Translations under genes and position numbers: made by a program
Notes under the pieces: model-generated
Databases searched by the model: none
Told to the model about the DNA's origin: nothing
The model's input: only the letters and a program-made list of their open reading frames with translations
Shown here: piece after piece, positions 1 through 22,199 of the stretch
How positions within the stretch are numbered: position 1 is the stretch's first letter
Layout: every line of letters begins with the position of its first letter
Assembly (NCBI RefSeq): GCF_002075285.3
Contig: NZ_CP021983.2
Coordinates: forward strand, 420,001-452,000
Length of the DNA stretch: 32,000 bases
DNA from: Halomicronema hongdechloris C2206
GTDB taxonomy: Bacteria; Cyanobacteriota; Cyanobacteriia; Phormidesmidales; Phormidesmidaceae
Direction: 5' to 3'

Positions 1-83
1 TATCTTGTCATATTTGCGGCCATTTCTTGGCAGATGCTGATAGCGTCTTGATATCTCCCAAGCACTGAGAAGGTGAGTAAATC

Positions 84-2063: not shown

Positions 2064-2479
2064 CACCAACATTACTCGGTCGCTGGCAGACTCGAATTCT
2101 CTTATTTGGCACTATTGGCCTATTAATCACAGCAATCTTTGCATTCTGCATTGTCAGTCCTGGAGGTACAGTCTTTTGGCAGGTGCTAGGTTATGTACTG
2201 CTGTTTGGCCTTCTCTGGGACATTCTTTACACGCTGCTGCAAAAGCTCCGCTGGGATCATGATTGGCCTGCTATTTTCCAACTGCTTGCCGGTATCTGGG
2301 AGGCTGTTTTTGTAGTGATGCTAGTTTCAGCAGGTATTTTGCCTGGAATTGAGTCGATTAATTTCGGCTGGTTTTTGGTTCATTACACTGCTGTTTGGTT
2401 AGGCATCTTTATTACTTCCCAATCATTAATGCGCATCTGGTTTCCTCGGTGGCGTTTCTATGGTGGCAGATGGTTGTAG
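2060..2479 (+). CDS. integral membrane protein (about 4 TM helices), translationally coupled to the FHA gene
   Basis: The ATG at 2060 forms an ATGA overlap with the TGA stop of the upstream gene (2061-2063). The track ORF starts at 2024. There are four long hydrophobic segments. Confidence 0.7.
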   Translation: MTPTLLGRWQTRILLFGTIGLLITAIFAFCIVSPGGTVFWQVLGYVLLFGLLWDILYTLLQKLRWDHDWPAIFQLLAGIWEAVFVVMLVSAGILPGIESINFGWFLVHYTAVWLGIFITSQSLMRIWFPRWRFYGGRWL

Positions 2480-2818
2480 AGGTTGAAAGATTTTGTCGTG
2501 CTATCCATCTGCGGCTTTGCTCTGGATTGGAAAGACTAGCTTTGCTAAGCAAGCATGTTCTAGTTTTCCCAGCAGTCCTTTAAGTAATTTACTTACTCCG
2601 AACTAATCTGTGGCCCCGCAACTCTGCACCCCGCTCAGCTAAACACTGCTCCCAACCGCGACGGTCAAAGATAGCTTTCGGATCATTGAGCAAGCCCCAT
2701 TTGCGCTCTTGTTGGCTGAGTTTGGCGAACTTGGCGTAGCCCGAATAGTCCTTTGTGATGAGCTGATCCTTTTGGGGCAGTAGAGGCGGGGTGTCCTAGT
2801 CGTAATCGCGGTAGCGTT

Positions 2819-3157
2819 CTATATGCGTCCCGTGGCCAAGAGTCGGTAGCCGACAGTCATCGATATCATCGACAAGAATAACTGCCAGAGGCTGGTGGGG
2901 TTGAGGATAGCCCGACTGCTCACAAATATGCAGAGAATGCCTGCGGCCACCAAGACCCAACCCAGATTTTTCAGGAAGCCCAGGGGCATCAAGATCAGCA
3001 GAAAGATGCCACCCACCAGCAAAAAAATGGAAGCATCGGCAGCAATGCCCCGCCACCAGTAGGGGCTGACGTTGGTGGTGAAGAAGATATTCTTGCCCAG
3101 AAAATAGATGCCCAACAGCATCAGGGCGAGACCAATAAGTTGCATCAGAAAGCGCAT
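2819..3157 (-). CDS. small integral membrane protein (about 4 TM)
   Basis: First ATG at 3157 (MRFLMQLIGL...). The track start at 3169 is TTG. The sequence is hydrophobic throughout. Confidence 0.6.
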   Translation of the reverse strand: MRFLMQLIGLALMLLGIYFLGKNIFFTTNVSPYWWRGIAADASIFLLVGGIFLLILMPLGFLKNLGWVLVAAGILCIFVSSRAILNPTSLWQLFLSMISMTVGYRLLATGRI

Positions 3158-3184
3158 GGGTATATCCAATAGATATGCAAAGAG

Positions 3185-3502
3185 TTAAGCCGAGGTATGG
3201 TTAGACCGATGTATCTGTGTCGCCAGCAGCAGCGGTACCGCCAGGCCCCCTATCAGGTTACCGAGCAACCACAGCCAGGAGAGGGAACCGCCAAATCCAT
3301 GGATATAGAATCCACGGCGGGTGGAGGACAGCAACGCATCCCAGATCAGATGGGCGCTGATGCCGACGGATAAACCAATGGCCCCGTCGCGCAGCAGGTT
3401 CACTAGGGTCCGCTGCCATGAGCTGTACCAGAGACGGCGGCGAGTGCGGCCAGGGCTGGTTCCAGCAGACCACATCGAGTGCAGTGGCCGATACCCTGGC
3501 AC
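3185..3502 (-). CDS. hypothetical membrane protein
   Basis: Open frame with a GTG at 3502 and an ATG at 3475. The C-terminal two thirds are hydrophobic (GAIGLSVGISAHLIWDALL, LSWLWLLGNLIGGLAVPLLL). It is co-directional with 2819..3157. No family recognised. Confidence 0.4.
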   Translation of the reverse strand: MPGYRPLHSMWSAGTSPGRTRRRLWYSSWQRTLVNLLRDGAIGLSVGISAHLIWDALLSSTRRGFYIHGFGGSLSWLWLLGNLIGGLAVPLLLATQIHRSNHTSA

Positions 3503-3771
3503 CGTTGCTTCACTGGCGGGTGTGCCATGTGTGGGACTGGGAGGAAGTGAATGCAGCCGCCGTCAACTGCGCCCAGCCGACGGTGAGTTTAATTAATGAC
3601 GAAGAGCTAGCGTGAATTCGGGAGCTGATCGCGGCGAAGACCTGGCCGGAGAAATGGGACGGGACAGAACATCGCGGCGACGAATGGCTGCCAGAGATTT
3701 TGTCGGATGGCAGCATACAACCGCTCTTATTCCCCAACCGCTAGGATAGGGACAACGATGGGGTTGGCAGC

Positions 3772-4422
3772 ATGGTTGATACGGCATCACGTCCACAGGG
3801 CATTGAAACCGATACCTGGGTACCTGCGACCTGGGAAACATTTGTGGCGCTGTGCAACCGACCCGATTTTGACAAAGCTTGGTGCTACTACGATAAGGGT
3901 TGGATGCGGATTGAGATGGCACCACTAGGGAGCCTACATGGGCGCGAAAATTCCGTGGTTTCAAAGGTCGTTTCGCTGTTTGCTGCCCTCAAGATGATTA
4001 GAGTTGTCGAGTTTCTGAGTACCTCTTTACGCAAACCGGGTGAACGTGAGGCACAGCCAGACATTGCCTTTTATCTAGGGCAGAAGTTTCAATTGCCTAG
4101 CCTAAACAATCAACCTATCGATATTGGAGTATATGGCCCTCCTCAACTGGCGGTAGAAATTGCTTCGACGACCTTGAGCGATGATCTAGGGCGGAAGCGA
4201 CTCCTGTATGAGCGGTTGGGTGTACAGGAATATTGGGTCGTGAATGTGGCTACGTCAGAGGTTACGGCGTTTGCTGTCGAAAATGGGGGAAGTTGGGAGA
4301 TTCGCGATTCCCGAGTTTTGTCAGGACTGGCGCTGTCGGTCGTGGAAGAGGCGATGCAGCGTAGTCAGACTGAGGATGATGGGGCACTGACGCGGTGGTT
4401 GATCCAAACGTTTCAAAAGTAG
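3772..4422 (+). CDS. Uma2 (DUF820) family endonuclease
   Basis: Typical Uma2 landmarks: WETFVAL, QPDIAFY, PPQLAVEIASTT..D, GVQEYWVVN. Confidence 0.85.
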   Translation: MVDTASRPQGIETDTWVPATWETFVALCNRPDFDKAWCYYDKGWMRIEMAPLGSLHGRENSVVSKVVSLFAALKMIRVVEFLSTSLRKPGEREAQPDIAFYLGQKFQLPSLNNQPIDIGVYGPPQLAVEIASTTLSDDLGRKRLLYERLGVQEYWVVNVATSEVTAFAVENGGSWEIRDSRVLSGLALSVVEEAMQRSQTEDDGALTRWLIQTFQK

Positions 4423-4442
4423 CGATCGCTCAAAATTGCATC

Positions 4443-4748
4443 TTAGTCATATTGCACGATCGCGGTCTGTAGAACGTCGTTTCTGAAATATCGACTCAAA
4501 TCGTTGGATGTTCGTAAGTCGACCTTGCGTTGAATTAGGTCAGAGAGTTCGAGTTCCATGCCAGCCAAGCGAATCAGTCCTGGGGTATGCTCCGGTTCGA
4601 ATTCAACCAGGAAATCGACATCGCTGTCCGGGCAAAAGTCTTCTCGCAGTACTGAACCAAAAAGGGATAGTTTGCGAATGTGGTGGCGCTGGCAAAAGTC
4701 AGCTAGAGCGGGTTTAGGAAGATTGATGGGAAGGGAATGATTCACCAA
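4443..4748 (-). CDS. MNT-type nucleotidyltransferase (antitoxin-like), no adjacent HEPN partner
   Basis: Motif LSLFGSVLREDFCPDSDVDFLVEF (GS...D.D). The start is TTG at 4748 or GTG at 4745, and the GTG forms a GTGA overlap with the dndD-like stop. Confidence 0.85.
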   Translation of the reverse strand: MVNHSLPINLPKPALADFCQRHHIRKLSLFGSVLREDFCPDSDVDFLVEFEPEHTPGLIRLAGMELELSDLIQRKVDLRTSNDLSRYFRNDVLQTAIVQYD

Positions 4749-6711
4749 AAGTAGCCCTCCTTGATTGCGGTCTGCCTCTGACTCGGATCATACTCCAGCA
4801 GATATTCACGTGCGATCGCACCCTGTGCTCTCAATTGCCCGACCTCTTCGGTGCGAATCTCGGTATCGGTAGAGAGGAGGATAACTTGGTGGCTGGCTTG
4901 GGGGAAGTAGCGCTCGACGAGGTGGCGGCGATGTTCGGAGTCGAGGCGACCCAGAGGGGTATCTATTGCCACGGGCAGCTGCCGACCTGAAACACTGGCG
5001 AGGCCCCGCAGGAAGGCGATCGCCAGGAGCTGCTTTTCCCCCGCAGAGAGGCATTGGATGGGGAGGAGGTCACCTTCGGTATCGTAAAGGTCGAGGCGGA
5101 AGGTGTCAGCATCAACCATGACCCGGTGAACCAGGCTGGATTTGTGGAGCAGCAGCAAAAAGTACTGAGTGATGGATTGCTCTAATTCGCCCAACTTCTG
5201 CTTGGTCAGGCGTTTACGAAATTCCACAAGGGTTTTTTGGACACGAGGCGCTGTTGCCAGCAGCGTATTATCTTTACTGGCGTCAATCGCTCGGAACCAT
5301 ATTCAGCCAGCTGTTTTCTCGAGGTTTCCTGCTGGCGTTCTAGCTCGGAGTAGCGGCGGCGATGGAGTTCGAGATTGAATTGACACTCGTTGAGCTGAAG
5401 ACGGGTCTGATCACGTTCTGACCTAAGGCGTTCGTAGTCTTCCGGAGAGGCAGCCTTGGCGAGTTTGGTCTCAATGGCGTCAATGTCATCGGTGAGAGTT
5501 TGAATTTCAATGAGATGGGAGTGGGCCAGCCGCTGTTCGGCGGCGAGTTGGTGCTGCAGGATGTGATTAAGCCGATTAAGCGCATCGTCGGAGGCTTGTA
5601 GCCAGGCATCGCCGTTGGCATTGGCGCTGAGGGTTTCGGCTTCCTGTTCGAGAAAGGTTTGAATGGTCTTTTTCTGGGTGGGTTTGAGCTTGAGCTGGTT
5701 AAGAACTTCGAGCAGGCGCTGATCGTGCTCGGTCAGGGCATCATGGGCAATGGCGGCTTTATGCTGGGCCTGTTCGTGCTGTCCTTGTTGAGCGGCCTCG
5801 GTCAGTAGGTCCTGGACGAGAGCCAGGGGTAGGGTCGAGGCAGCCAGGTCTTGGAGCACCTGGGTTTGGACTCTGATTTCAGTTTTATCGGCATCTAATT
5901 GGTCTTTGAGCGGGACGAGCTGTTCAGTGATGTGACCACCGCTGGCGAAGAAGCGATCCTCGGCAGTTTGTAGAGCGGTTGCGGCTTGGTCGAGGGCGTC
6001 TTGGTAATCTTCGAGGTCATCGGCTGCGGCTTGCAGGTCGGTTTCGACTTGCTCAATCTGGCGGCTGAGAGCTTGGAAGGCATGTTGAGTCGCTTCGTCA
6101 CCGAGTTCAGCCTTTTTGCGACTGACGAGAATAGTCAGGTCATTAGCCAGGCGATCCACGAGTTCTAGCCCCAACACAGAGCGAATAGCGCTGATGACGT
6201 TGGGAGGTGGAGTTTCTTGTTCGGTCAGTTCTTTGATTTGTTCACCATCAAAGAGGAACAGGTTGGAGAGGCCAACGGGGAGCCAGTCTTCGACCTGTTC
6301 ATCCCAGGTTTGGGTGAGAATTTCGTTGGGCCAGCCGTCGAGTTCGACGGTGAGGTCGTCTTTGGTGCCCCGTCGCCAGGTACGAATGACGCGGAGGGTG
6401 CCGAGTTTTTCGATGCCGCTGATGTGGAGCACGCGCTCGAATGCGAGTTCAATGGTGGCTTCGGCATCAGGTGGGGCTTGGGTGTTGACGCACTGAGCCA
6501 AGAAGTCGGCGTAGGGGAGGTTGCGGCGGCGATCAATGGGGGCACGCTGACCGTAAAGCACGAGACGGAGGGCATCCATGAGAGTAGTTTTGCCGCCACC
6601 GTTAAGCCCCCCGATGAGGATGATGGGTTGTTCAGGAGTCGGGCGCAGATCGAGACGATGGCGTCCGTGGTAAGGGCCGAAGTTTTGGAAAACGAGTTCA
6701 CGCAGAATCAT
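4742..6711 (-). pseudogene. dndD: DndD-like SMC/ABC-type ATPase, split by a frameshift into 501-aa and 161-aa ORFs
   Basis: The N-terminus MILRELVFQNFGPYHG...LIGGLNGGGKTTLMDALRLVLYG carries a Walker A, followed by a long coiled coil. The C-terminus LSAGEKQLLAIAFL...LPVAIDTPLGRLDSEHRRHLVERYFPQASHQVILLSTDTEI matches the DndD signature and D-loop region. The N-terminal frame stops at 5206-5208, and the C-terminal frame is open back to the stop at 5303-5305. Confidence 0.8.
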
Positions 6712-8913: not shown

Positions 8914-9456
8914 CTACTCATACCCAATCTTCTCATCAAACTCAATCGCTCCACCCGCACCCCACTCTGCCGGATAACCCCCATCTTTGACATAGCGATG
9001 AAAGCTTGAATAGGGCCAGCCTTGTGGCGAATCGACTAGGCCATGTTTGACAGGGTTGTAGTGAATGTAATCGACATGATGGCGGAAGTCGGTTTCGTTT
9101 CGGATCTGGTGCTCCCAGAACCGACGCTGCCAGATGGCGTGTTCGCCTTTACTGCGACGAGAAGAGGACGGCTGTTGCCGATATGGGTGAGGGCACTGTC
9201 GGCTAAATCGAGCCTTGATCCTTTTCCAGCGAGATGAGAAGTCGGCATCTTCATCGGGCAGTGTCCAAATGCAGTGGAGGTGATCGGGCAAAATGACGAT
9301 GGCGTCGATGGTGAAGGGGGATTCGGTTTTGACGCTGCGGAAGGCTTGGCGAAGGAGTCCGATAGTTGAGTCGTTGTCGAAGAGGGATTGCCGTTGATGG
9401 GTGACGACGGTGAAGAAGTAGGTTGCCCCTGGAATTTTGGCGCGGCGGTAATGCAT
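8914..9456 (-). CDS. REP-associated tyrosine transposase (RAYT, IS200/IS605-like Y1 HUH enzyme)
   Basis: Contains the HUH motif LPDHLHCIW and the catalytic Tyr region VDYIHYNPVKHGLV. It is flanked by REP hairpins. Confidence 0.9.
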   Translation of the reverse strand: MHYRRAKIPGATYFFTVVTHQRQSLFDNDSTIGLLRQAFRSVKTESPFTIDAIVILPDHLHCIWTLPDEDADFSSRWKRIKARFSRQCPHPYRQQPSSSRRSKGEHAIWQRRFWEHQIRNETDFRHHVDYIHYNPVKHGLVDSPQGWPYSSFHRYVKDGGYPAEWGAGGAIEFDEKIGYE

Positions 9457-9550: not shown

Positions 9551-10754
9551 GCGCGGCAAGGCTAAAATATTGGGTAAAAGGTCAAGAAGAATGCTGCTAT
9601 GCCCCACCCTGATAAGTACGTTGTCAATCTCAGCGAAAGTGAGCGAGAGCGCCTCAAAGACATTAGTCGCAACGGGAAAGCCCCTGCGAAGAAAATCCTC
9701 CACGCCAGAATCTTGCTTTTGGCTGACCAAACTCATCAAGAGGGCGGTTGGACAGACCAACGCATTGGGGAAGCAATGGGTCTCCATCCCTACAGCGTGG
9801 CTCGCATTCGCAAACGGTTTGTCACGCAAGGAGAAGCGCCAGCGCTCAATCGCAAAGTTCGCACCACCCCGCCTGTGGCCCCCAAAGTAGACGGTGAAGT
9901 TGAAGCTCAACTGGTTGCCATCTGTTGTTCTACGCCCCCTGAGGGACGTGCTCGTTGGACGTTAAATTTATTAGTCGATGCCTTGAAAGCCCGCAGCATT
10001 GTCACCGAAATTAGTCGCGAAACCGTGCGTCAGACGCTTAAAAAAATGAATTACGACCTTGGAAAAAGCAACGATACTGCATCCCAGAGAAAGACACGGC
10101 CCGCTTTGTAGCTCAAATGGAAGTCGTGCTGGACCTGTACACAGCGGAGCACTCGCCTGAAGAGCCCCTCATCTGCATGGATGAAGCGGCGATTGAGTTG
10201 CATAAGGATGTCTATCCATCTCAACCCATGCAGCCAGGTTCAGATGCCAAAGAGGATTACCACTACGAGCGCGAAGGGGTACGCGCGTTGTTCATGTTCT
10301 TTGACCCGATTCGCGGCTGGCGACGGGTGAGTAGCCGAGAGCATCGTACCCGCATCGATTGGGCCGAAGAAGTCAAACAATTGTTAGACGAAGATTATCC
10401 TCATGCTCGCAAGGTCAAACTCTTGTGTGACAACCTCAACACCCATCATATTGCCTCACTCTATGAAGCCTTGGATGCGGATGAAGCCCATCGTTTAGCC
10501 CGGCGATTAGAGCTGTTCTACACCCCACGCAATGGGAGCTGGCTGAATGTCACCGAAATTGAGTTGAGTGTCTTACAGCAGCAATGTCTTGACCGTCGGA
10601 TTGGCGATCCCATTACGCTTGAGCAAGCGTTAGCAGCTTGGCAACAGCAGCGTAATTCACAACAAGCAGGCGTTGTTTGGCGCTTTACCACTCAAGATGC
10701 CAGAATCAAGCTGCGCCGCCTTTATCCTAACCCAGCAAATTAGCCTTGCCACGC
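9551..10754 (+). mobile_element. IS630-family insertion sequence with a TA target duplication
   Basis: The terminal inverted repeats are GCGCGGCAAGGCTAA (9551-) and TTAGCCTTGCCACGC (-10754). TA flanks both ends (9549-9550 and 10755-10756). Confidence 0.9.
9599..10743 (+). CDS. IS630-family transposase; ORFA (9599..10111) and ORFB joined by a -1 frameshift on A7 at 10040-10046
   Basis: A -1 slip on CTT-AAA-AAA-A gives ...TLKKNELRPWKKQRYCIPEKDTARFVAQMEVVLDLY..., a continuous DDE transposase. ORFB carries DNLNTH...NGSWLNVTE. Confidence 0.85.
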
Positions 10755-11268: not shown

Positions 11269-11853
11269 ATGCCATCAAAAAGTCAGCTTCAAGCAACGCT
11301 TAAGGAAAAGTATGGCATTAATAAAAATATTACTCAACGTTTGAGTGCAGCAGACTGTGAAAACTTACTAAATCTTCTCGACACTCAATCCAGCGCGGAG
11401 AGGTTGGTTGAAGTATTTGTCGACAAGAACAACGAGCTTTCAAATAATAACCGCTACTTTGGTCAACGCCGAAGTCAGGCAGAGAAGAAGTTTGAGCGAT
11501 TACAAGCGGAACATCATCAGCTACAAAAGTCCATTGCTGAGCTAGAGGCTAAAAACAACAACTTAGGCGAGCGCAAACAGGGGTTATTCGAAGAACAACA
11601 GGCTCTTGAAGCTGAAATCAACAAGCTGACTTCCGAAAACAGAAATTTAAGCGTAAAAGTACAAAGTCTGACAACTCACAATGACGAACTTGTTACAGCT
11701 AATGACCAGCTCAAAAAAGATAACAAGGAACTTAAGAACATAGTCGATCAAATTCGCCTACGGCTAGCTCGCGATACAAAACTGCTTTTGCAATACGAAG
11801 ATAGCGAAATTCGTAAAGCGCTCATCCGCTTATTCCGCTGGACTTTAGGGTAA
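11269..11853 (+). CDS. coiled-coil protein with a short helix-extended-helix-like N-terminus
   Basis: AGGGGA lies 8 nt upstream of the ATG. Residues ~70-175 are heptad-rich (LQAEHHQLQKSIAELEAKNNNL...). The DNA is AT-rich, where long ORFs are unlikely by chance. Confidence 0.7.
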   Translation: MPSKSQLQATLKEKYGINKNITQRLSAADCENLLNLLDTQSSAERLVEVFVDKNNELSNNNRYFGQRRSQAEKKFERLQAEHHQLQKSIAELEAKNNNLGERKQGLFEEQQALEAEINKLTSENRNLSVKVQSLTTHNDELVTANDQLKKDNKELKNIVDQIRLRLARDTKLLLQYEDSEIRKALIRLFRWTLG

Positions 11854-11865
11854 AGGATAGTAGCT

Positions 11866-12294
11866 ATGGGAAGCAAAAAAAGTCAGAAGCGACTCTTCAG
11901 TGGAATGGGTTACCGTGAGGTTCAGCGGTCAAACTCTAACCGTAGAAGTAAATTGCCCAAACAAGATCAAAAATGGCTTAAAGATAATGGCTATAAAAAC
12001 GTTGGCTGGGATAATGTTATAAAACTCTACCAAAAAATTAATGACTTTTTATCCTCTTCTGATTTAGATGACCCTAGCTTAGAAGATCTATTTTTAAAGG
12101 CTGATAAAATTGGCAGTAAGTATCAGACTCAAGAGGAGATAAAAGCTTTTAACCAAGCTCTCAAGCTAGAAGTCGAAGAGATTTCTGATGAAATTGATAA
12201 ACAATTTCCTGATTCAGAATATGAGCTTTTAGATTACAGTCAGCATTCTGTCGGCAAAACAAGTAAAAAGGCTAATACAAAGCGTAAAAAGTAA
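11866..12294 (+). CDS. hypothetical basic protein that shares a segment with the N-terminus of the downstream HNH protein
   Basis: AAGGA RBS, 12 nt after the upstream stop. SLEDLFLKADKIGSKY (aa 71-86) resembles TLQDLFKLADKVGNRRY in the next gene. Confidence 0.65.
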   Translation: MGSKKSQKRLFSGMGYREVQRSNSNRRSKLPKQDQKWLKDNGYKNVGWDNVIKLYQKINDFLSSSDLDDPSLEDLFLKADKIGSKYQTQEEIKAFNQALKLEVEEISDEIDKQFPDSEYELLDYSQHSVGKTSKKANTKRKK

Positions 12295-12300
12295 TATTTT

Positions 12301-12771
12301 ATGAGTTCTTGTCCTATGTCTATGGAAGAAGAAAAAACGCTTCAAGATCTCTTTAAGCTAGCTGATAAAGTTGGCAATAGGCGTTACCACAAACTGACTC
12401 GTCAGGATCTTCAAGATTATCGAAAATTTGACTACTGGCGATATGTGAACGGTGATAGCGAATGCGGAACGACAGAGGAAAGTAGGCAATGGGCTAGAGA
12501 CAACTCAGAGCACTACTGCCCTGTATGTGGAGAACGATTCAGTAGGAATAATGGCAGAAGTATCGATCATAAATTGCCTCGTGCTCAATATCCCTGGCTA
12601 TCGCTAGATTTCAGAAACTTATGGGTGATTTGCCATCAATGCAATCAAGAAAAAGGAGAGATGCACTGGTATGAATATGAGCACTATATTTTTACTAGAT
12701 ATCCCGAAAGATACGAAGATATTGTATTCGCTAGGCCAAGACAACTCCTCAAACGCTCAAAATCTAAATAG
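12301..12771 (+). CDS. HNH endonuclease
   Basis: CPVCGERF...SIDHKLPR...NLWVICHQCNQEKG is a CxxC plus H-N-H zinc-finger nuclease motif. The gene starts 6 nt after the upstream stop. Confidence 0.8.
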   Translation: MSSCPMSMEEEKTLQDLFKLADKVGNRRYHKLTRQDLQDYRKFDYWRYVNGDSECGTTEESRQWARDNSEHYCPVCGERFSRNNGRSIDHKLPRAQYPWLSLDFRNLWVICHQCNQEKGEMHWYEYEHYIFTRYPERYEDIVFARPRQLLKRSKSK

Positions 12772-12877
12772 TATTCAAGTTTTCGACGTTTGTGATGGAT
12801 GGGGTTTATGGGAAGGATTGGGGATGTCGGCGCGAAGGGAAAGAGGCCGCGTTTGAGGATGAGGGGTTAGCGGTGGG

Positions 12878-12907
12878 TGAATGTATTGGGTGGTGGGCAG
12901 TGCCCAC
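12878..12907. repeat. REP-like motif TGAATGTATTGGGTGGTGGGCAGTGCCCAC (right-hand partner of 11125..11173)
   Basis: Shares TGAATnnATTGGGTGGTGGGC with the left copy and contains the GTGGGCA/TGCCCAC inverted repeat. Confidence 0.6.
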
Positions 12908-13168
12908 TGTCGGCTAAATCGAGCCTTGATCATTTTCCAGCGAGATGAGAAGTCGGCATTTTCATCGGGCAGTGTCCAAATGCAGTGGAGGTGATCGGGC
13001 AAAATGACGATGGCCGTCGATGGTGAAGGGGGATTCGGCTTTGACGCTACGGAAGGCTTGGCGAAGGAGTCCGATAGTTGAGTCGTTGTCGAAGAGGGAT
13101 TGTCGTTGATGGGTGACGACGGTGAAGAAGTAGGTTGCCCCTGAGGTTTTGGCACGGCGATAGCGCAT
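12905..13168 (-). pseudogene. truncated and frameshifted RAYT copy (5' half only)
   Basis: MRYRRAKTSGATYFFTVVTHQRQSLFDNDSTIGLLRQAFRSVKAESPFTID is followed by a 1-nt insertion (GATGGCCGTCGATGG versus GATGGCGTCGATGG in copy 1). IVILPDHLHCIWTLPDE..ARFSRQ continues in another frame, and homology ends at 12905. Confidence 0.85.
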
Positions 13169-13260
13169 GGAGATTGTGATGAGTCCATGGGCTTAGGGTA
13201 GGCTGGATGGAAGGAAAAATATCGGTGATGTTGGGTTTCGCTGCGCTGCACCCAATCTAC
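12905..13260. repeat. copy 2 of the ~355-bp direct repeat (RAYT 5' half plus REP)
   Basis: Same orientation as 9194..9548. Confidence 0.85.
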
Positions 13261-13443
13261 GAGAGCGATGCGATAGCACTTATAGTGTTCTTAAGAGGAA
13301 TGAATCATGCTTACACACCAGATGTAGGACTTGACTTTCCCGTACAATACCACCTAACAACGATAGGTGCATGCTCGTTCCATGCAGCATATAATTGAGA
13401 GGTACACATCTTTATTAATCAGAAGTGAGACAACGCTATAAAG

Positions 13444-14433
13444 ATGAAAATGAGCATACCAAAAGAAATTCAAGATTGTATACAAACTATATCAAACCAA
13501 CTTGATGCCGATCTATTACTTTATAGTGCAGACATTGATGAGGAAAATGCAGATATTTTAATAGAAGCCATTCGCAAAAAGGCTCCTAAGAGAGAAAATG
13601 TTGTCTTGATCTTAGCGACTTATGGAGGTGATCCGGATGCTGCTTATAGAATTACACGTTGCCTGAAGAGAGCGTATAGCAAATTTACATTGTTTATTTT
13701 TGGCTACTGCAAGAGCGCTGGCACTTTGATCGCCATTGGTGCTGATGAAATAGTTATGTCGGATCTTGCTGAACTTGGTCCTTTAGATGTCCAAGTCTTA
13801 AAAGAAAATGATTTTAGAAGATCTTCTGGTCTTGACTTACAACAAGCGCTTACTATTTTGGGCCATGAAACATTTAATGCTTTCGAAGTTGGCTTTCTTT
13901 CAACTATTTATAAGTCAGGTGGAGTTATTACCTCCAAAATGGCGGCTGATATTGCAAGCAATATGGCAATTGGGTTACTAGCCCCCATTGCTGGTCAAAT
14001 AGATCCTCTGAGACTGGGCGAACTTTCTAGATCTATGCAAGTCGCTTATGAATATGGGACAAGGCTAAACCCAAATATAAAAAAATCTATTAACAAGCTA
14101 GTCGCTGGATATCCATCTCATAGCTTCGTCATTGATAGAGAAGAAGCGCAAGAATTATTTCGGAATGTCCGTAAACCGACAGATGCAGAATCAATCTTGG
14201 AATCTGTATTGTATGAGTGTGCGAGATCACCTGCCCCTCAAGATATGATATTCTCCTTGGATGTTTCCCTAACGGAAGAAGATCAAGAATATCAGGAGCA
14301 CAAGCAAGCTGAAAATCTAGAGGAAGCTAATGAGCATGGAGGACAACATGAATTTAATGGAAAGAGGGAACATATCGATGATGCTACTTCAACAAATGAA
14401 TCGGTTGGAGAAGATAAAGCCGAGACAACATGA
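13444..14433 (+). CDS. SDH-family / ClpP-SppA-fold serine protease-like protein with an acidic C-terminal tail
   Basis: VVLILATYGGDPDAAYRITRCLKR...FIFGYCKSAGTLIAIGADEIVMSDLAELGPLD fits the Clp-fold serine protease core (nucleophile Ser in KSAGT). Recognised from memory of PF01972-like sequences. Confidence 0.7.
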   Translation: MKMSIPKEIQDCIQTISNQLDADLLLYSADIDEENADILIEAIRKKAPKRENVVLILATYGGDPDAAYRITRCLKRAYSKFTLFIFGYCKSAGTLIAIGADEIVMSDLAELGPLDVQVLKENDFRRSSGLDLQQALTILGHETFNAFEVGFLSTIYKSGGVITSKMAADIASNMAIGLLAPIAGQIDPLRLGELSRSMQVAYEYGTRLNPNIKKSINKLVAGYPSHSFVIDREEAQELFRNVRKPTDAESILESVLYECARSPAPQDMIFSLDVSLTEEDQEYQEHKQAENLEEANEHGGQHEFNGKREHIDDATSTNESVGEDKAETT

Positions 14434-14926: not shown

Positions 14927-15148
14927 CTCTAGGCCTGAGCTCGAGGTATTCTGTATTGGCTAAATCAGGGGGCCAAGGGTCAGTCTGTTTTACCTTTCTT
15001 TCTTTTCTTTCGACTAAACCATAGTCGAAAAGGCCGTTTAGGAGATTTTTCGGAATCCTCGACATCCTTGTAAATGAAGGTTTTAGCACAACCATCCTCC
15101 ACTACTTCCACTAGAACACGCTTCCGTTTAGGAACGCTGGACAACAAA

Positions 15149-15988
15149 TTAGACATTATTCTTCGTCCTCCATAACAGTCGAATCGCCCCGCTTCTAGCT
15201 ATTATCCAGTCTATCGCCTCATCATGTAGCGACTTATCCTCCATCCTGAGTATATTATCAGAATTATCTGAGTCGATGGCAAGTAATCCTGCAATTGAAC
15301 CTTCTTGAAAAACTGCTGCCACCAGTACGACTTGTATATTTCTATTTATTAGGATTTTGTTTTCATCGGTCAAATGTCTATAGCTCGACGGCAAGGAAGC
15401 TGAATTGGCAAAGTTAATAAATTCTATGCGTTGTTTCTTGTTTTTTAGAAAAGTGTATCCGACTACACCTTCATTCAGACTGAATTTAGCTAAAAGCTCT
15501 TTCTCTGGAACATTTTTAGTCCTACAAACCATCTGAAACTTCCAGGCAAAGAAATTCTGTCTCACAGGAATAAAAATGGTGATTCTAATATTTTCACTAA
15601 GATGAAACTTCTGTCTAAATCTCTTCTTTAAAGCATTTAGTTCAATCGCAATAGCAGGTATGAGATTCTCCTCGACCACTATGGAAAGTTGACCAGCCTC
15701 TCTTTTAGAAGCTAAAGTATAAGACACCCAAGGTATAACGTATGATAATGAAATCACAATTATTGAAATTATAGTCGCCATTCGTTCATTCCTAAAAATT
15801 GTCCAGGAGTTGGGAATAGGACTACTTTCTTCCAGGAAAAAGGATTGAGTGTCGCTCAAGCTGATTATAATCAGTGTAGTAATAAAAAATAGAGAAAGTA
15901 GTACCTGAATAAAGTGAAATTTACGTAATAAATAATCGAGTTCATATTGGATGGTTTTTCTAATGCACAGCAAGTTGGATTTTGACAT
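15149..15988 (-). CDS. membrane protein: two N-terminal TM helices plus a C-terminal GAF-like domain
   Basis: ATG at 15988. The hydrophobic helices are FIQVLLSLFFITTLIIISL and MATIISIIVISLSYVIPWVSY. The C-terminal ~150 aa show a GAF-like pattern (IRITIFIPV, NEGVVGYTF, IQVVLVAAVFQEGSIAGLLAIDSD). Confidence 0.7.
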   Translation of the reverse strand: MSKSNLLCIRKTIQYELDYLLRKFHFIQVLLSLFFITTLIIISLSDTQSFFLEESSPIPNSWTIFRNERMATIISIIVISLSYVIPWVSYTLASKREAGQLSIVVEENLIPAIAIELNALKKRFRQKFHLSENIRITIFIPVRQNFFAWKFQMVCRTKNVPEKELLAKFSLNEGVVGYTFLKNKKQRIEFINFANSASLPSSYRHLTDENKILINRNIQVVLVAAVFQEGSIAGLLAIDSDNSDNILRMEDKSLHDEAIDWIIARSGAIRLLWRTKNNV

Positions 15989-15991
15989 GCC

Positions 15992-16258
15992 TTACTCTTT
16001 AACGGCAAATGGAGATCGATAAATTCTATCGATTTCAAATGTTAATCTAGTTAATCTTCTTTCCCAGGTAAGTTTTATTATTTTTATGTCCGCGAAAGCA
16101 ACCCATTCTTCATTTACCAATGGGATCGGAACATCAACTGGGAAAATTCGATACCCATCTTTTTGAGCCTCATATTGTTTGTTGAAATCTAAGTTTTCCG
16201 GATATCCTTGTGCTTTTCTGATTTTCAATATGCTGTTTACTTCGCATGGCATTCCCAC
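15992..16258 (-). CDS. small protein, DUF2584-like (tentative)
   Basis: A GTG start with AAGGAG 7 nt upstream gives MGMPCEVNS...KDGYRIFPVDVPIPL. From memory this resembles the Firmicutes DUF2584 family (MGMP...GYR.YP.D.P). Its stop lies 3 nt before the next ATG. Confidence 0.65.
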   Translation of the reverse strand: MGMPCEVNSILKIRKAQGYPENLDFNKQYEAQKDGYRIFPVDVPIPLVNEEWVAFADIKIIKLTWERRLTRLTFEIDRIYRSPFAVKE

Positions 16259-16426
16259 TTTTTTACTCCTTAAGAATTGCTTGAAGTAATGAGACTGATA
16301 ATATTTGATAATTAATATAATAGAAGGCTAGCTGTCGGTTATCTAAACTGCATGCTTTGATCTCCAGACCTCGCATATCAAGGAATTCGACTGACCAGTT
16401 TAGTAGTATAGCAGCTTAAACATTTT

Positions 16427-16664
16427 TTAGGTATTATGTACTCCCCATCTCTCCCGATGCCACCTCAACTCTTCCAAACTTGGCATAAACCTTTCCTCCC
16501 TCAGTAACTCAATCGGCTCTCCCTATAAACTCCATCTTTCCTTGACTTTCCACCGCTGCCTCCTCCCTAAAACGCTCCCAGGGAATCACAATGCGGTGAT
16601 CGGCATCCATTACATCGAGCTTTTTGAGAAACTTGATAGCCCTTTTACTGAATCGAACCTCCAT
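16427..16664 (-). pseudogene. chimeric relic: RelE/ParE-like toxin N-terminus fused to a decayed 3' tail of an HNH-nuclease paralog
   Basis: The ATG at 16664 gives MEVRFSKRAIKFLKKLD (RelE/ParE-type start), then ...RIVIPWERFREEAAVESQGKMEF, homologous to IPWDRFMEEAAVESRGMMAF of 18201..19142. After an indel, the shifted frame continues GEPIELLREERFMPSLEELRWHRERW to the stop at 16427. Confidence 0.6.
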
Positions 16665-16875
16665 GCTTCACCCAATCCGTTAAATCAATGGTTTCAGAAG
16701 CATCGAAATCCTTTGGAGAACCAACCTGAGTCTCTATCTCAGCTTGTTCCTCGTCGCTCACAAAGGGCATCAGGAGCTTACACAGGTGTAACCGTTCTTC
16801 CCGCAGAACTTCTCGCAGGCTGTCTTTGATCAATGCCTTCAATGTTTCGGAATTTAGAGCCTCTGTAGATTCCAT
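16645..16875 (-). CDS. small antitoxin-like protein (partner of the truncated RelE-like stub)
   Basis: 76 aa, acidic. It overlaps the downstream RelE-like start by 20 nt. Confidence 0.5.
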   Translation of the reverse strand: MESTEALNSETLKALIKDSLREVLREERLHLCKLLMPFVSDEEQAEIETQVGSPKDFDASETIDLTDWVKHGGSIQ

Positions 16876-17022
16876 CTGGATAATCCTGACACTTTGACTT
16901 CTATCGTAATCCAGTCACCCAAGGTGGGCACTGACCAGTATCAACACCTTGACCCAATCCCCCACCTCTCCCGATGCCACCTCACCCCTTCCAAACTTGG
17001 CATAAACTGTTCCTCCCTCGGT

Positions 17023-18252
17023 CAGGGCTATTTCATTCTAAAAATGGCCTTGAGGGTATCTAGACCAAACTTGCAGAGTCGTTCAGCCTGAGCCATATTG
17101 GCGAACTCGTTGGAGCGATAGAGGTTGAGCGCGAAGTTTCGAGCGACGGCGAAGATTTGCGGCAACTGGTGCATACGAATGCGCGAAGCATCTTCTCCCT
17201 GGGTCACATCCCGGATATGATGTACCTTATTTTCAACGCCCCAATAGCCCCGAATGCGCCGAGCCAAGGATTCCGCTGATTCTAAAAACGAGGCGACATA
17301 GTAGCGGGTCTCAGTTTCTAAGTGAGGCTGCCCGCCCTTCTTGAAGTGTCGCTCACTCTCCACTCGAATGAGCGTCTTCAGCCCTGGCCAGGGCTTGATG
17401 TTATCGAGGGTGGTGCATAGGCTAACGACCCGCTTCTCCAGTCGCCCATGCCCTTTACTGACCTCGGTGTAGCTGTCCTCAGCGATAAAGTTGGCCTGAA
17501 CGCTTTTGTGCAAGTTACCCTGATTGCCTTTGAGGGCACCCAAGTAATGATTGTCGGTGTCAAGGATGAGCTGACAGTTTTTTTTGGGTGCTAATCGCAT
17601 CAAAGGCTATCACCACCCCCTTCAGCGCCAGTTGCTTAATGAACTCGGGCAGGGCTTTGATTTCGTTGGTCTTGTGCTCTACCTGATAGGGCTCCAGAAT
17701 CAACCCCCGCTCCACCAGATAAGCACTGACCAATAGAATGGCGGGATGAGGGGGAGAGTCAGGATTGTCAGTCTCCAGTTGATACGACCCGCGTAAGACT
17801 TTGCCATCCACCGCTAAGGTTTCACCGGCTAACGGTTCAATGCCAAAGAACCGAGCCAAGGCCGCCGAATACTGTCCATAGTCTAGCTTTAGCAGCACCC
17901 GGCGAATCGTGCTGTAGGAGGGAAGACGGCCCTTGGGCGGGTTGAAGAGGTCAATCAACTCGCTGCGGTAGCTTTTGAGCCAGTCGCCAATGGCCAGAAA
18001 TCCACGATTACCGGCCGTCACCGCCAGGGTGAAGAGCGCCAGGCATAAGGCCATCTGATGTCGTTTGCCAGAGGCCTGACGGACATCTGGCAGGGCAACG
18101 AAGGCTTCGAGGATCTCGATGCGCTCTACAGCAGGCTCATGCCTCGAGTCGAGGGTAGTAGGGGTAGGGGGCAGACGCATAGACGCTAGGACCATTGGGA
18201 TTAGCCTGAAACTCTAGCATCTTTAGGTCCCCTTGAGAATGAAATGGCCCTG
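17023..18252 (-). mobile_element. ISAs1-family insertion sequence with a 9-bp target site duplication
   Basis: The inverted repeats are CAGGGCTATTTCATTC (17023-) and GAATGAAATGGCCCTG (-18252). The duplication TCCCTCGGT lies at 17014-17022 and 18253-18261. Confidence 0.85.
17028..18195 (-). pseudogene. ISAs1-family transposase split by a frameshift at an A8 run
   Basis: ORF1 ends ...AFDAISTQKKLSAHP* and ORF2 reads APKKNCQLILDTDNHYLGALKGNQ. A -1 shift on the CAAAAAAAAC run (plus-strand T8 at 17578-17585) restores DAISTQKKNCQLILDTDNHYLGALKGNQ, which matches the family pattern. Confidence 0.8.
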
Positions 18253-19142
18253 TCCCTCGGTAACTCAATCCGCTCTCCCCTAAACGCCATCATGCCTCGG
18301 CTTTCCACTGCTGCTTCTTCCATAAACCTATCCCAGGGAATCAAAATACGGTAGCTGTCATCTAGCCCAAACCAGCCGTGGTCGAAGGCCCAGTGGTGAT
18401 TTTTGCAGAGGGCGAGGCCGTTGACGAAGCGATCGTCGCGAAACTCTGAGAATGGCATGATGTGCGCCCCGTCTACAATGGTTACCCCATCCCAACTCAC
18501 CACCCGCACCTTACAGAACGCGCAGCGCTGGTCATACAGCTTCACCACATTGCGCCGAAAGGCGGCATTGCGGACAAAAATGCGGTCTTCATCCTTCAGG
18601 TCTTCTACATTGTAGATAGCCCCGCCGGAGTCAAACAGGGATTGCTGTATGAAGTCAAACTCGTCGTACTTAAACGACTCGGCGATCTCACTTTCCTTTT
18701 CAGGGAACCAGGCCTGAATCAGGATAGTAGTCAGTTCCTGGCGACTTTGGGAGGCTTGCAGCAATACAAACAGCTCTGGGTCCACATAGGCATACTTCAC
18801 TGCCGATCGCAGCGCTGATAGGCTTCTTAGCTTGACCCTGGCCTGAATCGTCGCCTCAAATCCTGGATTTGGCATCAGATACCAGAACTTGTCGCCCGTC
18901 AGATGGAAGAAGGGCAGCGCAATATTGGAGTGATGATCGCTGGAGACAAAGCGATGCCAGAACTTGAGGAAGTTGGCCGTTAGCTCTGGAGATAGATAAA
19001 TCTCATTGCGATGAATCTTGCCCTTCTCTAGCAAGTCGATAATCGTTAGCAGCAAAATTGGCTTGTGGGGGGCAACCCCCCGCGCCCGATCTACCCGTAG
19101 ATTTGCAAACTTCTTGGCATAGTATTGCAAATCCCGTTTCAT
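18201..19142 (-). CDS. HNH (HNH_2-type) endonuclease with an N-terminal DNA-reader-like domain; 3' end replaced by the IS
   Basis: The C-terminal CAFCKVRVV...VDGAHIMPF...NGLALCKNHHWAFDHGWF is an HNH motif. The N-terminal RARGVAPHKPILLL...LPFFHLTGDKFWYL is typical of type IV restriction-like proteins. The last 17 codons (18201-18252) lie inside the ISAs1 element. Confidence 0.8.
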   Translation of the reverse strand: MKRDLQYYAKKFANLRVDRARGVAPHKPILLLTIIDLLEKGKIHRNEIYLSPELTANFLKFWHRFVSSDHHSNIALPFFHLTGDKFWYLMPNPGFEATIQARVKLRSLSALRSAVKYAYVDPELFVLLQASQSRQELTTILIQAWFPEKESEIAESFKYDEFDFIQQSLFDSGGAIYNVEDLKDEDRIFVRNAAFRRNVVKLYDQRCAFCKVRVVSWDGVTIVDGAHIMPFSEFRDDRFVNGLALCKNHHWAFDHGWFGLDDSYRILIPWDRFMEEAAVESRGMMAFRGERIELPRDRAISFSRGPKDARVSG

Positions 19143-19885: not shown

Positions 19886-20281
19886 TTAGGGGGTGGAATT
19901 CAGCACGGTCTCAACGGTAGTGTAGAGAGATTGTACTTGGGCGATCGCACCCTTGCGATCAATTGGTTCATCCAGAGTGTCCACTAGACCGTATCGAAAT
20001 TGAACTGCGAATGCGGTAAATTCCAGCAATGATCTAAACTCCGCTATTACGCTACAGTCTAGATTCTCCAAACGCTGCATTAATGCTCTCAAATCATGGG
20101 TATAAGGATATACATCTCCTAACCCTGCTAGCCACGCCTTTAGGGACTTCTCTGCCGCCTGCTGTACATGGAAGCCAAATATTTCATCTGCAAACTGCTC
20201 AAAATCTAACATTCCGGTGAGCGCTTGCAGGTCCCGATGGGCTGCTAGCAAGAGTTTCCTAGCTTGCTTGAGATCGCTCAT
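19886..20281 (-). CDS. HEPN domain protein (toxin of an MNT/HEPN pair)
   Basis: 131 aa. A helical HEPN-like pattern (AEKSLKAWLA...THDLRAL). It overlaps the upstream NTase by 23 nt. Confidence 0.8.
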   Translation of the reverse strand: MSDLKQARKLLLAAHRDLQALTGMLDFEQFADEIFGFHVQQAAEKSLKAWLAGLGDVYPYTHDLRALMQRLENLDCSVIAEFRSLLEFTAFAVQFRYGLVDTLDEPIDRKGAIAQVQSLYTTVETVLNSTP

Positions 20282-20612
20282 AGAGCACCTTACCTTCCTC
20301 TAGCGCCCTTGAGATCAGATGATTTCGACTATGTCGCCACTCAGCAATCTCATCAGCGCTGTACATGAGCACATCCGCAGGGATGCCAAACCTTCCCAAG
20401 GCATCCCAAACTTTAGCAGCTTCCTTACGGCGGCTGCGATGACGCCCAAATGCCTCGGCCTCAATCACCAAAAGATCAATATCTGAATCTGGCCTCGCCA
20501 CTCCCCTAGCCCGAGAGCCAAACATCACAATCTGCTCCGGGGCCACAGCCTGGACAATGGCCTGGGTCATCTGTTGCAGTAGCTCCGGTGTCAGCGTAGG
20601 ACTCGACATCAT
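20259..20612 (-). CDS. MNT-type nucleotidyltransferase (antitoxin of the MNT/HEPN pair)
   Basis: IVMFGSRARGVARPDSDIDLLVI. ATG at 20612 (the track GTG is at 20648). Confidence 0.85.
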   Translation of the reverse strand: MMSSPTLTPELLQQMTQAIVQAVAPEQIVMFGSRARGVARPDSDIDLLVIEAEAFGRHRSRRKEAAKVWDALGRFGIPADVLMYSADEIAEWRHSRNHLISRALEEGKVLYERSQAS

Positions 20613-20677
20613 CTCACCCCCTGGGGTTAATCTATCAGGCGCTGCCACCTGTTGGGGGCCGTAACCCCTGAGCCACA

Positions 20678-20905: not shown

Positions 20906-21541
20906 ATGACAACCAACACCCCTACGAGAAAGAGAAATTTCTCCAGTTTTTCTAAAAAAGAGGCCTTCAAACAGCTCGGCCTTACAGACTTGTTGCCCTG
21001 GACGATTGAGGCAGCCCCCATCCCCCCCAGCTCCTTTTTTCAAGAGCATTTTAAGCGCCTGCAGCAACACTTTGACCTGGAGAGCACAGAAGAGTCTAAA
21101 AAGCTGTTGATTGATGCCATCGCCAGCGAAGCCCTGGAAGGGATTGAGCGCGTCAAACTCTGGAAATCGGCTCCCCTAGAAGGGGAAATGACCTGTGGCA
21201 TTGCCGATTACTTAGGTGCAGAACGGAAGCGGTATTTAGAAGCGCCTTTTCTCTGCATTATCGAAGCCAAAAAGGATGACTTTGAGCAGGGGATGGCTCA
21301 ATGCCTGGTCGAAATGCAAGCCTGCCAGTGGGAAAATCAATGCCTGGGGCTGATGCCCGAGATTTACGGCATTGTCACCAACGGCAGCGGTTGGATGTTT
21401 TATCGGCTGGTGCCATCAGGGGAGGTCTATGAGACACTACTGTATTCCATCCATGATTTAGCCACCTTAATTGGCGCTCTCCATGAAGTCTTTCGCCAGT
21501 GCGAACGCAACCTGGACTACCCCTCAAAAGTGTCGGCTTAG
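20906..21541 (+). CDS. PD-(D/E)xK nuclease-fold protein (HsdR N-terminal-like)
   Basis: GIADYL...PFLCIIEAKKDDFEQGMAQCL fits a D...ExK...Q core. Confidence 0.65.
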   Translation: MTTNTPTRKRNFSSFSKKEAFKQLGLTDLLPWTIEAAPIPPSSFFQEHFKRLQQHFDLESTEESKKLLIDAIASEALEGIERVKLWKSAPLEGEMTCGIADYLGAERKRYLEAPFLCIIEAKKDDFEQGMAQCLVEMQACQWENQCLGLMPEIYGIVTNGSGWMFYRLVPSGEVYETLLYSIHDLATLIGALHEVFRQCERNLDYPSKVSA

Positions 21542-21554
21542 GAGAAAGAGCCCA

Positions 21555-22199
21555 ATGGTGCTAACCGTTAGCCGAGAGTACATTCAACTGCCGCCGGGTA
21601 GTGAAGTCACGCTTCACTATCAAACCTGGGCCGACTACGAAGCGCTGCTGGCCAGCCGCCGCGAGAATGCAGCCATCAAAATTCGCTTCAACGGTCACAC
21701 TCAACAGATAACGCTCATGGCCCCCATGGCCGGTCACGGCAATCGAATTGATACGTTAGTGGATCTGGTGAAAGCCCTACTGCGCCATCAAGGCCGTGAT
21801 TGGCATAGCTACGACCCGGTTACCTTAAAGAAGCTTCAAGAGGCAGGAGCTGAACCAGATGCCTGTTTTTATATTGAAAATTGGCAAGCAGTCTTGGGTA
21901 AGGATCGCATTGACCTGGCGACAGACCCCCCACCCGACCTGGCGATTGAGATGGATATGACCTCGTTGACGGACTTGGAGGTCTACCAAACCCTCGGTGT
22001 TCCTGAGGTCTGGATTTACCGGCAGGGACAGTTGAGCCTTCATGGGCTGACCGCTGACGGCTATGAAGACCGTGCTAATAGTCCGACGTTTCCGTCAGTG
22101 GATGTGAAGAATCTGCTGCCAGAGTACGTCGAGAGAGCCTGGGCAGCTGGTTCCAGCGTTGCCATGCGAGAGTTTGAACAGGTTCTCATATCCTTCTAG
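21555..22199 (+). CDS. Uma2 (DUF820) family endonuclease
   Basis: ATG at 21555. Landmarks are WADYEALL, EPDACFY, PPDLAIEMDMTS and GVPEVWIY. Confidence 0.85.
   Translation: MVLTVSREYIQLPPGSEVTLHYQTWADYEALLASRRENAAIKIRFNGHTQQITLMAPMAGHGNRIDTLVDLVKALLRHQGRDWHSYDPVTLKKLQEAGAEPDACFYIENWQAVLGKDRIDLATDPPPDLAIEMDMTSLTDLEVYQTLGVPEVWIYRQGQLSLHGLTADGYEDRANSPTFPSVDVKNLLPEYVERAWAAGSSVAMREFEQVLISF

Follow-up and report, generated by a model that had tools for sequence, protein, structure and literature searches.

A three-gene cassette of cyanobacteria encoding a DUF2584/YtmB-like protein, a putative membrane-anchored GAF-fold protein and a small conserved 'TFVY' protein

Stand-alone GAF proteins may exert their effect solely through partner proteins: NreB, of the NreB/NreC system, is under the control of NreA, and the GAF domain of PDE6 binds the small basic protein P-gamma. 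The transmembrane (TM) effectors of Pycsar and CBASS fuse N-terminal TM helices to a C-terminal ligand-binding domain, and type II toxin-antitoxin (TA) pairs are compact, translationally coupled units with a small first gene. YtmB of Bacillus subtilis (PDB 2NWA) is a structural-genomics protein without known function. All of these can be compared with a locus of the cyanobacterium Halomicronema hongdechloris C2206, located in a 32,000-nucleotide stretch of contig NZ_CP021983.2 (positions 420,001 to 452,000) that was analysed as a whole and is referred to here as the window. The locus is a cassette of three genes on the minus strand, which encode an 88-amino-acid (aa) protein of the DUF2584 family, a 279-aa membrane protein here called GAF-TM, and a 58-aa protein. 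By analogy, the cassette would be best classed among the GAF-type sensor proteins that act through partners. Its features, numbered from the first nucleotide of the window, are the following.

16317..16345, minus strand: candidate sigma-70-like promoter TAGATA-17-TATTAT, weak and tentative, from a consensus scan only (9/12 matches)
16266..16271, minus strand: Shine-Dalgarno sequence AAGGAG, 7 nt 5' of the gene 1 GTG, read directly from the sequence
15992..16258, minus strand: gene 1, 88-aa DUF2584/YtmB-like protein, predicted all-beta; GTG start at 16256-16258, TAA stop
15149..15988, minus strand: gene 2, 279-aa membrane protein (GAF-TM); ATG start; no database family
15713..15913, minus strand: predicted membrane region of gene 2, with TM1 (residues 26-46), external loop (47-70) and TM2 (71-92)
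15152..15598, minus strand: predicted cytoplasmic GAF-fold domain of gene 2, residues ~131-279, from Foldseek and the predicted order of secondary-structure elements
14980..15156, minus strand: gene 3, 58-aa protein XM38_004240; overlap of 8 nt between its start and the gene 2 stop (ATGTCTAA)

Between the TAA stop codon of gene 1 and the ATG of gene 2 there are 3 nt (ggc). This gap is 3-6 nt long in 11 of 13 lineages, and the overlap between genes 2 and 3 is 8 nt in 10 of the 13. Since the spacing is conserved and gene 3 is kept in every intact locus, the sequences argue for a three-gene, translationally coupled unit. The initial annotation of this DNA had described a two-gene operon. Genes 1 and 2 are indeed adjacent and coupled, and the sequence bore out its description of two open reading frames (ORFs), one of 88 aa with a GTG start and AAGGAG 7 nt 5' of it, the other of 279 aa with its ATG 3 nt after the end of the first, but the third conserved gene had been overlooked. 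At the position equivalent to AAGGAG, homologous loci have a Shine-Dalgarno-like GGAG or GAGG; comparison of the homologous cassette loci made evident neither an upstream motif common to different genera nor a terminator. All the cassette ORFs in the window are intact.

The RefSeq models of the first two genes are shorter than the ORFs listed above. That of gene 2 has 210 aa and begins at Met70, so that TM1, the conserved loop and the helix at the N terminus are missing, and that of gene 1 has 86 aa and begins at Met3. Conservation of the N termini across homologs supports the longer ORFs as the probable gene products of 279 and 88 aa. The GTG start of gene 1 is preferred to the annotated version because MGM is invariant at the N terminus of the DUF2584 family, and the 279-aa start is preferred to Met70 because the homologs of GAF-TM conserve the whole length, including the N terminus. 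That both ORFs are real genes, as had been proposed, is borne out by the recovery of 30 full-length homologs of GAF-TM and more than 160 homologs of the DUF2584 protein.

The 30 full-length GAF-TM homologs show 47-64% identity, are nearly all 276-284 aa long and are conserved over the whole length, with a mean column identity of 68% across orders. In the AlphaFold (AF2) model of GAF-TM, which is confident (pLDDT 87.8), a helix at the N terminus is followed by two long helices and by a further long, connecting helix, and an alpha/beta domain starts at about residue 131. In the N-terminal half only residues 26-46 and 71-92 gave Kyte-Doolittle windows above 1.6, in agreement with the two N-terminal TM helices noticed earlier. 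The family means of lysine plus arginine residues (5.8 for residues 1-25, 2.2 for the loop, 7.9 for residues 93-130) predict a topology with the N terminus inside, the loop outside and the C terminus inside, which places the GAF domain in the cytoplasm. The predicted external loop, of 24 residues (DTQSFF..SPIPNSW), is highly conserved, with D46, S49, F50 and F51 invariant, and the C terminus has the conserved sequence RLLWR[MT]KNNV.

The C-terminal ~150 residues of the GAF-TM model form a GAF fold: when the model was compared with the PDB using Foldseek, the top 40 matches were all GAF domains. They included 4mmn, the free methionine-R-sulfoxide reductase (fRMsr) of Thermoplasma, which was the best match (TMt 0.74), the Staphylococcus aureus fRMsr, 3trc (PtsP-GAF), the PDE6 GAF domains, NreA and bilin-binding GAF domains. 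The order of elements modelled between residues 131 and 276 (helix-b1-b2-a-b3-a-b4-b5-helix) is that of GAF domains. The models therefore point to a GAF fold, with membership defined at the level of fold only, and the GAF-like C-terminal domain proposed in the initial annotation stands at that level and without a sequence match. Searches of Pfam (at E<=1, with the models GAF, GAF_2 and GAF_3), NCBIfam, PADLOC and PHROGs gave no match for GAF-TM, and the family profile had no sequence match, at E<=10, to any PDB chain. Beyond the GAF domain there is no output domain, neither enzymatic nor DNA-binding.

Given that the best fold match is an fRMsr, and that a second enzyme of this kind is found among the matches, the GAF domain could be taken as a membrane-tethered fRMsr. 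This is very improbable: the domain has one conserved cysteine only, C155, and so no set of catalytic and resolving cysteines, C155 itself is not invariant in the wider family, and sequence similarity to PDB chains is lacking. A second identity was also discarded. The GAF domains that bind cyclic nucleotide monophosphates (cNMP), such as those of PDE2/5/6 and CyaB1/2, have a conserved NKFDE motif (NK..F...DE), and a cNMP-type GAF identity was rejected for GAF-TM since this motif is absent. Position 208, which is D in the window, is variable across the family, and only N210 is conserved.

The closer parallel is with NreA and the GAF domains of PDE6, both of which are among the fold matches. Like these proteins, GAF-TM appears to have a GAF fold with no output domain of its own, and small proteins that may be its partners, one of them with a basic tail, are encoded beside it. 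Unlike them, it is predicted to be held in the membrane by a pair of TM helices, between which lies a conserved external loop. GAF-TM shares no sequence similarity with either, and the likeness would be one of mode of action, not of membership. Because GAF-TM is a GAF protein without an output domain, the reading that we tentatively favour, and in which our confidence is low, is that the cassette encodes an accessory membrane-anchored GAF receptor that acts through small partners.

The first candidate partner is the product of gene 3, in which a conserved core, LVEV.EDGSAKTF[VI]Y, described as beta-hairpin-like, precedes a tail that is simply basic and variable. A homologous ORF lies directly 3' of the GAF-TM gene in every intact cassette. 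The family has at least 138 members, all of 33-98 aa and none of them part of a fusion, and searches of Pfam, PHROGs and the PDB found no match. Two interpretations of this protein were rejected. The HicB antitoxin identity suggested by the JGI label of a homolog (P0261) had no Pfam or PDB support, and an amphipathic membrane-targeting helix in the tail was discarded when its maximal hydrophobic moment was found to be no higher than that of shuffled sequences.

The second is the product of gene 1. Its identification as a DUF2584 protein was upheld by a Pfam match (PF10763) of 33.1 bits, against a cutoff of 25, that covers residues 1-76. The gene 1 profile also matched PDB 2NWA, the B. subtilis YtmB (E 1.8e-7), with the N-terminal MGMP.E.N common to both, and Foldseek comparison of the all-beta AF2 model (pLDDT 88.3) with the same entry gave E 1.2e-6 and TM 0.68/0.74. 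YtmB was the only significant structural and sequence relative of gene 1 in the PDB. The two proteins belong to the same Pfam family and have the same fold, and the cyanobacterial copy differs in being linked, in part of the family only, to two more genes. The N-terminal sequence MGMPCEVNS is invariant, the MGM start is kept in 40 homologs, and the mean column identity across orders is 70%. Cassette and solo versions of DUF2584 differ at Y29, E34, I39, V41 and D77; these residues were dropped as a signal since they are inseparable from phylogeny. Our literature search found no paper relevant to DUF2584, PF10763 or ytmB.

An exhaustive profile search of 1.84 billion representative proteins detected 59 representatives of the GAF-TM family and no remote families; a single match of 4065 aa was dismissed as spurious. 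The named sources were all cyanobacteria: Tolypothrix, Scytonema, Nostoc, Microcystis, Pseudanabaena and Lyngbya. Neither GAF-TM nor its divergent relatives were found in the plasmid, phage and IMG/VR collections, and DUF2584 was found neither on plasmids nor in IMG/VR. A faint tblastn match of DUF2584 (E 1e-3) was seen with ORF221 of Bacillus phage 0305phi8-36 (EF583821.1, 133131-133379), and others equally faint (E 1e-3) with some Listeria phage records. A fold match in BFVD, A7KUZ5 (Foldseek E 1e-5, TMq 0.72), is presumably the same protein as ORF221.

The linkage of the three genes was analysed in 53 metagenome loci seeded with DUF2584 alone and classed by hidden Markov models for all three proteins; these and other homologous loci are cited below by number (L001 and so on). 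The loci fell into four groups.

9 loci: intact cassette
7 loci: GAF-gene fragments 3' of an intact DUF2584 gene
25 loci: solo DUF2584 with at least 1 kb of downstream sequence
12 loci: uninformative, the contig being too short or the DUF2584 match incomplete

In L027, L031, L035, L050 and L051 the fragments represent genuine decay. Direct inspection showed an in-frame deletion of GAF-TM residues ~71-243 in L035, and a truncated GAF-TM gene together with loss of gene 3 in L031. The solo DUF2584 genes keep all the invariant residues and form whole clades, and no other conserved neighbour of these genes was found. Conversely, the gene immediately upstream of GAF-TM is DUF2584 in all five genome loci for which upstream sequence is available and in all the intact cassettes. 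Linkage is thus asymmetric: DUF2584 is often found without GAF-TM, and main-clade GAF-TM was never seen without an upstream DUF2584. The two genes are conserved neighbours, but 25 DUF2584 loci are solo and the divergent GAF-TM genes described below are without DUF2584. From the conservation and clade structure of the solo genes it follows that DUF2584 has a function of its own and that the other two genes are dispensable. The protein is strongly conserved when alone and in Bacillus, where it is present as YtmB, and it is therefore not merely a component of the cassette.

The search of representative proteins also produced divergent GAF-TM relatives (L073-L078), none of which has DUF2584. An ORF that overlaps the divergent GAF-TM gene of L076 downstream is a homolog of gene 3 (hhalign probability 74%, E 2.8e-5); in L074 and L075 the downstream gene 3-like matches are only suggestive. 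Because these relatives are without DUF2584, and a gene 3 homolog is kept in L076, the older unit appears to be GAF-TM plus the gene 3 'TFVY' protein, with DUF2584 having joined it in the main cyanobacterial clade.

The organization and linkage just described could also be those of a TA-like addiction module in which GAF-TM is the toxin, the upstream DUF2584 protein the antitoxin and the gene 3 product a co-factor. As in type II TA pairs, the cassette is compact and translationally coupled, a small upstream gene being tightly joined to a larger downstream one, and in the window it lies among mobile and TA debris. The constant presence of DUF2584 upstream of main-clade GAF-TM, together with the abundance of orphan DUF2584 genes, has the same sense. 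However, the cassette has three genes, and the first of them is conserved outside it: the solo DUF2584 genes, which make up whole conserved clades and have a counterpart in the Bacillus ytmB, are not decaying orphans. Moreover, divergent GAF-TM genes exist without the presumed antitoxin, no match to a toxin or antitoxin family was found in Pfam, NCBIfam or PADLOC, and the cassette was not found on plasmids. We consider an addiction module improbable.

As to the way in which the cassette reached the window, its G+C content is 36.7%, compared with 53.0% in the rest of the window, and its G+C content at third codon positions is 29-37%, compared with 43-74% in the flanking ORFs. This low value, which agrees with the foreign low-G+C DNA noticed in the initial annotation, indicates horizontal acquisition. 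The three proteins of the window are closest to those of the same Pseudanabaena-type loci (L001, L033, L034 and L040), with identities of 61-65% for GAF-TM and 50-53% for gene 3, and the three genes were therefore transferred together, as a unit. The cassette occupies part of a low-G+C block of about 5.7 kb, bounded by insertion sequence (IS) and repeat debris, that also holds a coiled-coil/unknown/HNH trio and an SDH ClpP-like protease.

No flanking synteny was found between genera; the flanks differ in every genus. Four loci have housekeeping flanks: DUF3120 and PDH E2 in L001, CzcD and Ffh in L005, a purB-type lyase and RsmF in L008, and LipB and RidA in L044. In other loci the neighbours are of a different nature. 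The cassette is flanked by a transposase and GmrSD in L004, and by a type I restriction-modification (RM) system, a DnaB-like helicase and an integrase in L017. In L015, from Lyngbya aestuarii (1-5420), it lies directly 3' of a Tn7-like element whose neighbours match the Cas12k, TnsB, TnsC and TniQ PADLOC models (type V-K CRISPR-associated transposon), and a type I RM HsdR gene is found upstream. Thus RM or mobile genes adjoin the cassette in 4 of about 11 independent loci (L004, L015, L017 and the window). In Microcystis (L011-L014 and L021-L028) the cassette occupies a fixed site after acnB, and the genes downstream vary and are of the defence or TA kind, AAA_15 plus OLD-TOPRIM in some strains and BrnT/XisI in others. 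Some of the Microcystis GAF-TM genes, called at 236 aa, match the family profile only from position 22-30, which may indicate disruption of the N terminus. In Synechocystis sp. PCC 6803, acnB is reported to be co-transcribed with slr0666 as a dicistron (PMC7336809); given the position of the Microcystis cassette after acnB, slr0666 is a candidate member of the family. Among the divergent relatives, the solo GAF-TM gene P0179 (8 contigs; L077, 1338-3424) adjoins genes of the Abi_C and YaaC families, which are found in the L077/L078 neighbourhoods, and another divergent GAF-TM gene lies within a primase/helix-turn-helix (HTH) block.

The cassette thus belongs to the accessory genes, being dispensable, frequently lost and transferred from time to time, and it is neither core housekeeping nor a recognisable defence system. 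This follows from the counts of 9 intact, 7 fragmentary and 25 solo loci, the verified decay, the variable flanks and the low G+C content in the window.

Such neighbourhoods raise the question of an abortive-infection or other defence function, in which the two-TM/GAF effector would disrupt the membrane when the GAF domain binds a phage- or stress-derived molecule, and DUF2584, gene 3 or both would be the sensor, adaptor or inhibitor. The architecture of GAF-TM parallels that of the Pycsar and CBASS TM effectors in that the predicted TM helices, at the N terminus, precede a C-terminal domain whose fold is of a ligand-binding class. The patchy distribution, horizontal movement and frequent decay of the cassette would fit this role, as would the RM and mobile genes that adjoin it, the variable defence or TA genes immediately 3' of the Microcystis cassette, and the position of the divergent relatives beside Abi_C/YaaC or in the primase/HTH block. 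On the other hand, Pycsar and CBASS effectors differ from GAF-TM in several respects. No cyclase or CD-NTase was detected with Pfam or PADLOC in the cassette or next to it, and the only partners are the 88-aa and 58-aa proteins, in accordance with the earlier remark that no signal-generating enzyme is present. The putative sensing domain is a GAF domain and not a cNMP-binding or SAVED domain, and the cassette is chromosomal, restricted to cyanobacteria, absent from plasmid, phage and IMG/VR collections and, at 68% for GAF-TM and 70% for DUF2584 across orders, unusually conserved.

The search for known defence models gave results in the same direction. As the initial annotation had anticipated, no PADLOC-DB v2 model matched the cassette (E<=1 for genes 1 and 2), and PHROGs gave no match for any of the three proteins. 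Enrichment near defence genes, which had been put forward as a check, was not shown. When about 100 neighbours of the cassette and about 100 neighbours of solo DUF2584, taken as the comparison set, were searched with PADLOC, the numbers of model families matched were similar (209 and 223, respectively), so that no cassette-specific defence association was shown, and four or five loci are flanked by housekeeping genes. Taken together, these data make a defence role unlikely. The more general proposal of a self-contained sensor/effector or TA-like module is possible, but it is not the interpretation favoured here, and its two-gene framing was only partly right.

In the accessory receptor that we favour, the binding or release of the small partners would depend on whether the GAF domain has bound its ligand, or on a signal that comes from the external loop. 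Gene 3 would be the older, dedicated partner of GAF-TM, and DUF2584 an autonomous protein whose activity would be modulated by the module in the main cyanobacterial clade. Several observations count against this proposal. Inspection of two alignments (A1 and A6) showed no NKFDE-type motif in GAF-TM and no conserved F-x3-D-E; the frequent loss of GAF-TM and gene 3 also fits a costly effector; and the contexts of the cassette in the window, L004, L015 and L017, and of the divergent genes in L077/L078, fit a conflict system as well or better. In a further reading, GAF-TM plus gene 3 would be an undescribed, self-contained membrane conflict module of the abortive-infection or addiction type. A small molecule would be sensed by the GAF domain, the TM region and the basic partner would together kill or arrest the cell, and DUF2584 would have been recruited in cyanobacteria to trigger or restrain the response. 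The ancestral habitat of the module would then correspond to the neighbourhoods with Abi_C/YaaC or primase/HTH genes that are seen in divergent members. We regard such a module as rather unlikely.

Other elements of the window surround the cassette. In the low-G+C block, a plus-strand trio (within 11269-14433) encodes a coiled-coil protein of 194 aa, a protein of 142 aa without assignment and an HNH nuclease of 156 aa, and it is followed by the gene of the SDH ClpP-like serine protease, of 329 aa, which matches phrog_21683 at 2.6e-81. The trio and the protease (11269-14433) may be a separate phage-derived or defence-like cassette. The truncated N terminus of a second Y1 transposase (90% over 52 aa) is found inside the block, at 12962-13168; the ORF of an IS200-like Y1 transposase is found at 8914-9456, and 9599-10743 holds an IS630-like pair (HTH_32 plus DDE_3).

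At the right boundary of the block a 63-nt repeat is present at 16443-16505 and 16960-17022 (90% identity), and the 3' end of an HNH_2 endonuclease gene is duplicated (16497-16597 and 18253-18352, 81-93%). The repeat and the duplication bracket a two-ORF IS4-type transposase, 17028-18195, and a fragment of a RelB-like antitoxin is located at 16645-16875. The 313-aa HNH_2 protein encoded at 18201-19142 resembles a phosphorothioated-DNA-binding restriction endonuclease model, with a score of 102 bits that is below the 180-bit cutoff, and it also matches a PADLOC HNH model. A HEPN/nucleotidyltransferase (MNT-type) pair and a Uma2-family putative endonuclease are found nearby, in the regions 19886-20648 and 21471-22199.

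What emerges is a clearly defined unknown, not a surprising mechanism. GAF-TM and gene 3 are families without a database model, DUF2584 has a solved structure and no known function, and our literature search retrieved no paper on these families. With the cassette, DUF2584/YtmB acquires consistent genomic partners for the first time, and a membrane GAF module that is compact and testable is defined in cyanobacteria that include bloom-forming and model genera (Microcystis, Nostoc and Lyngbya, for example). Should the GAF domain prove to bind a metabolite or nucleotide, GAF-TM would represent a minimal receptor that lacks an output domain; a toxic or protective cassette would instead amount to a new conflict system.

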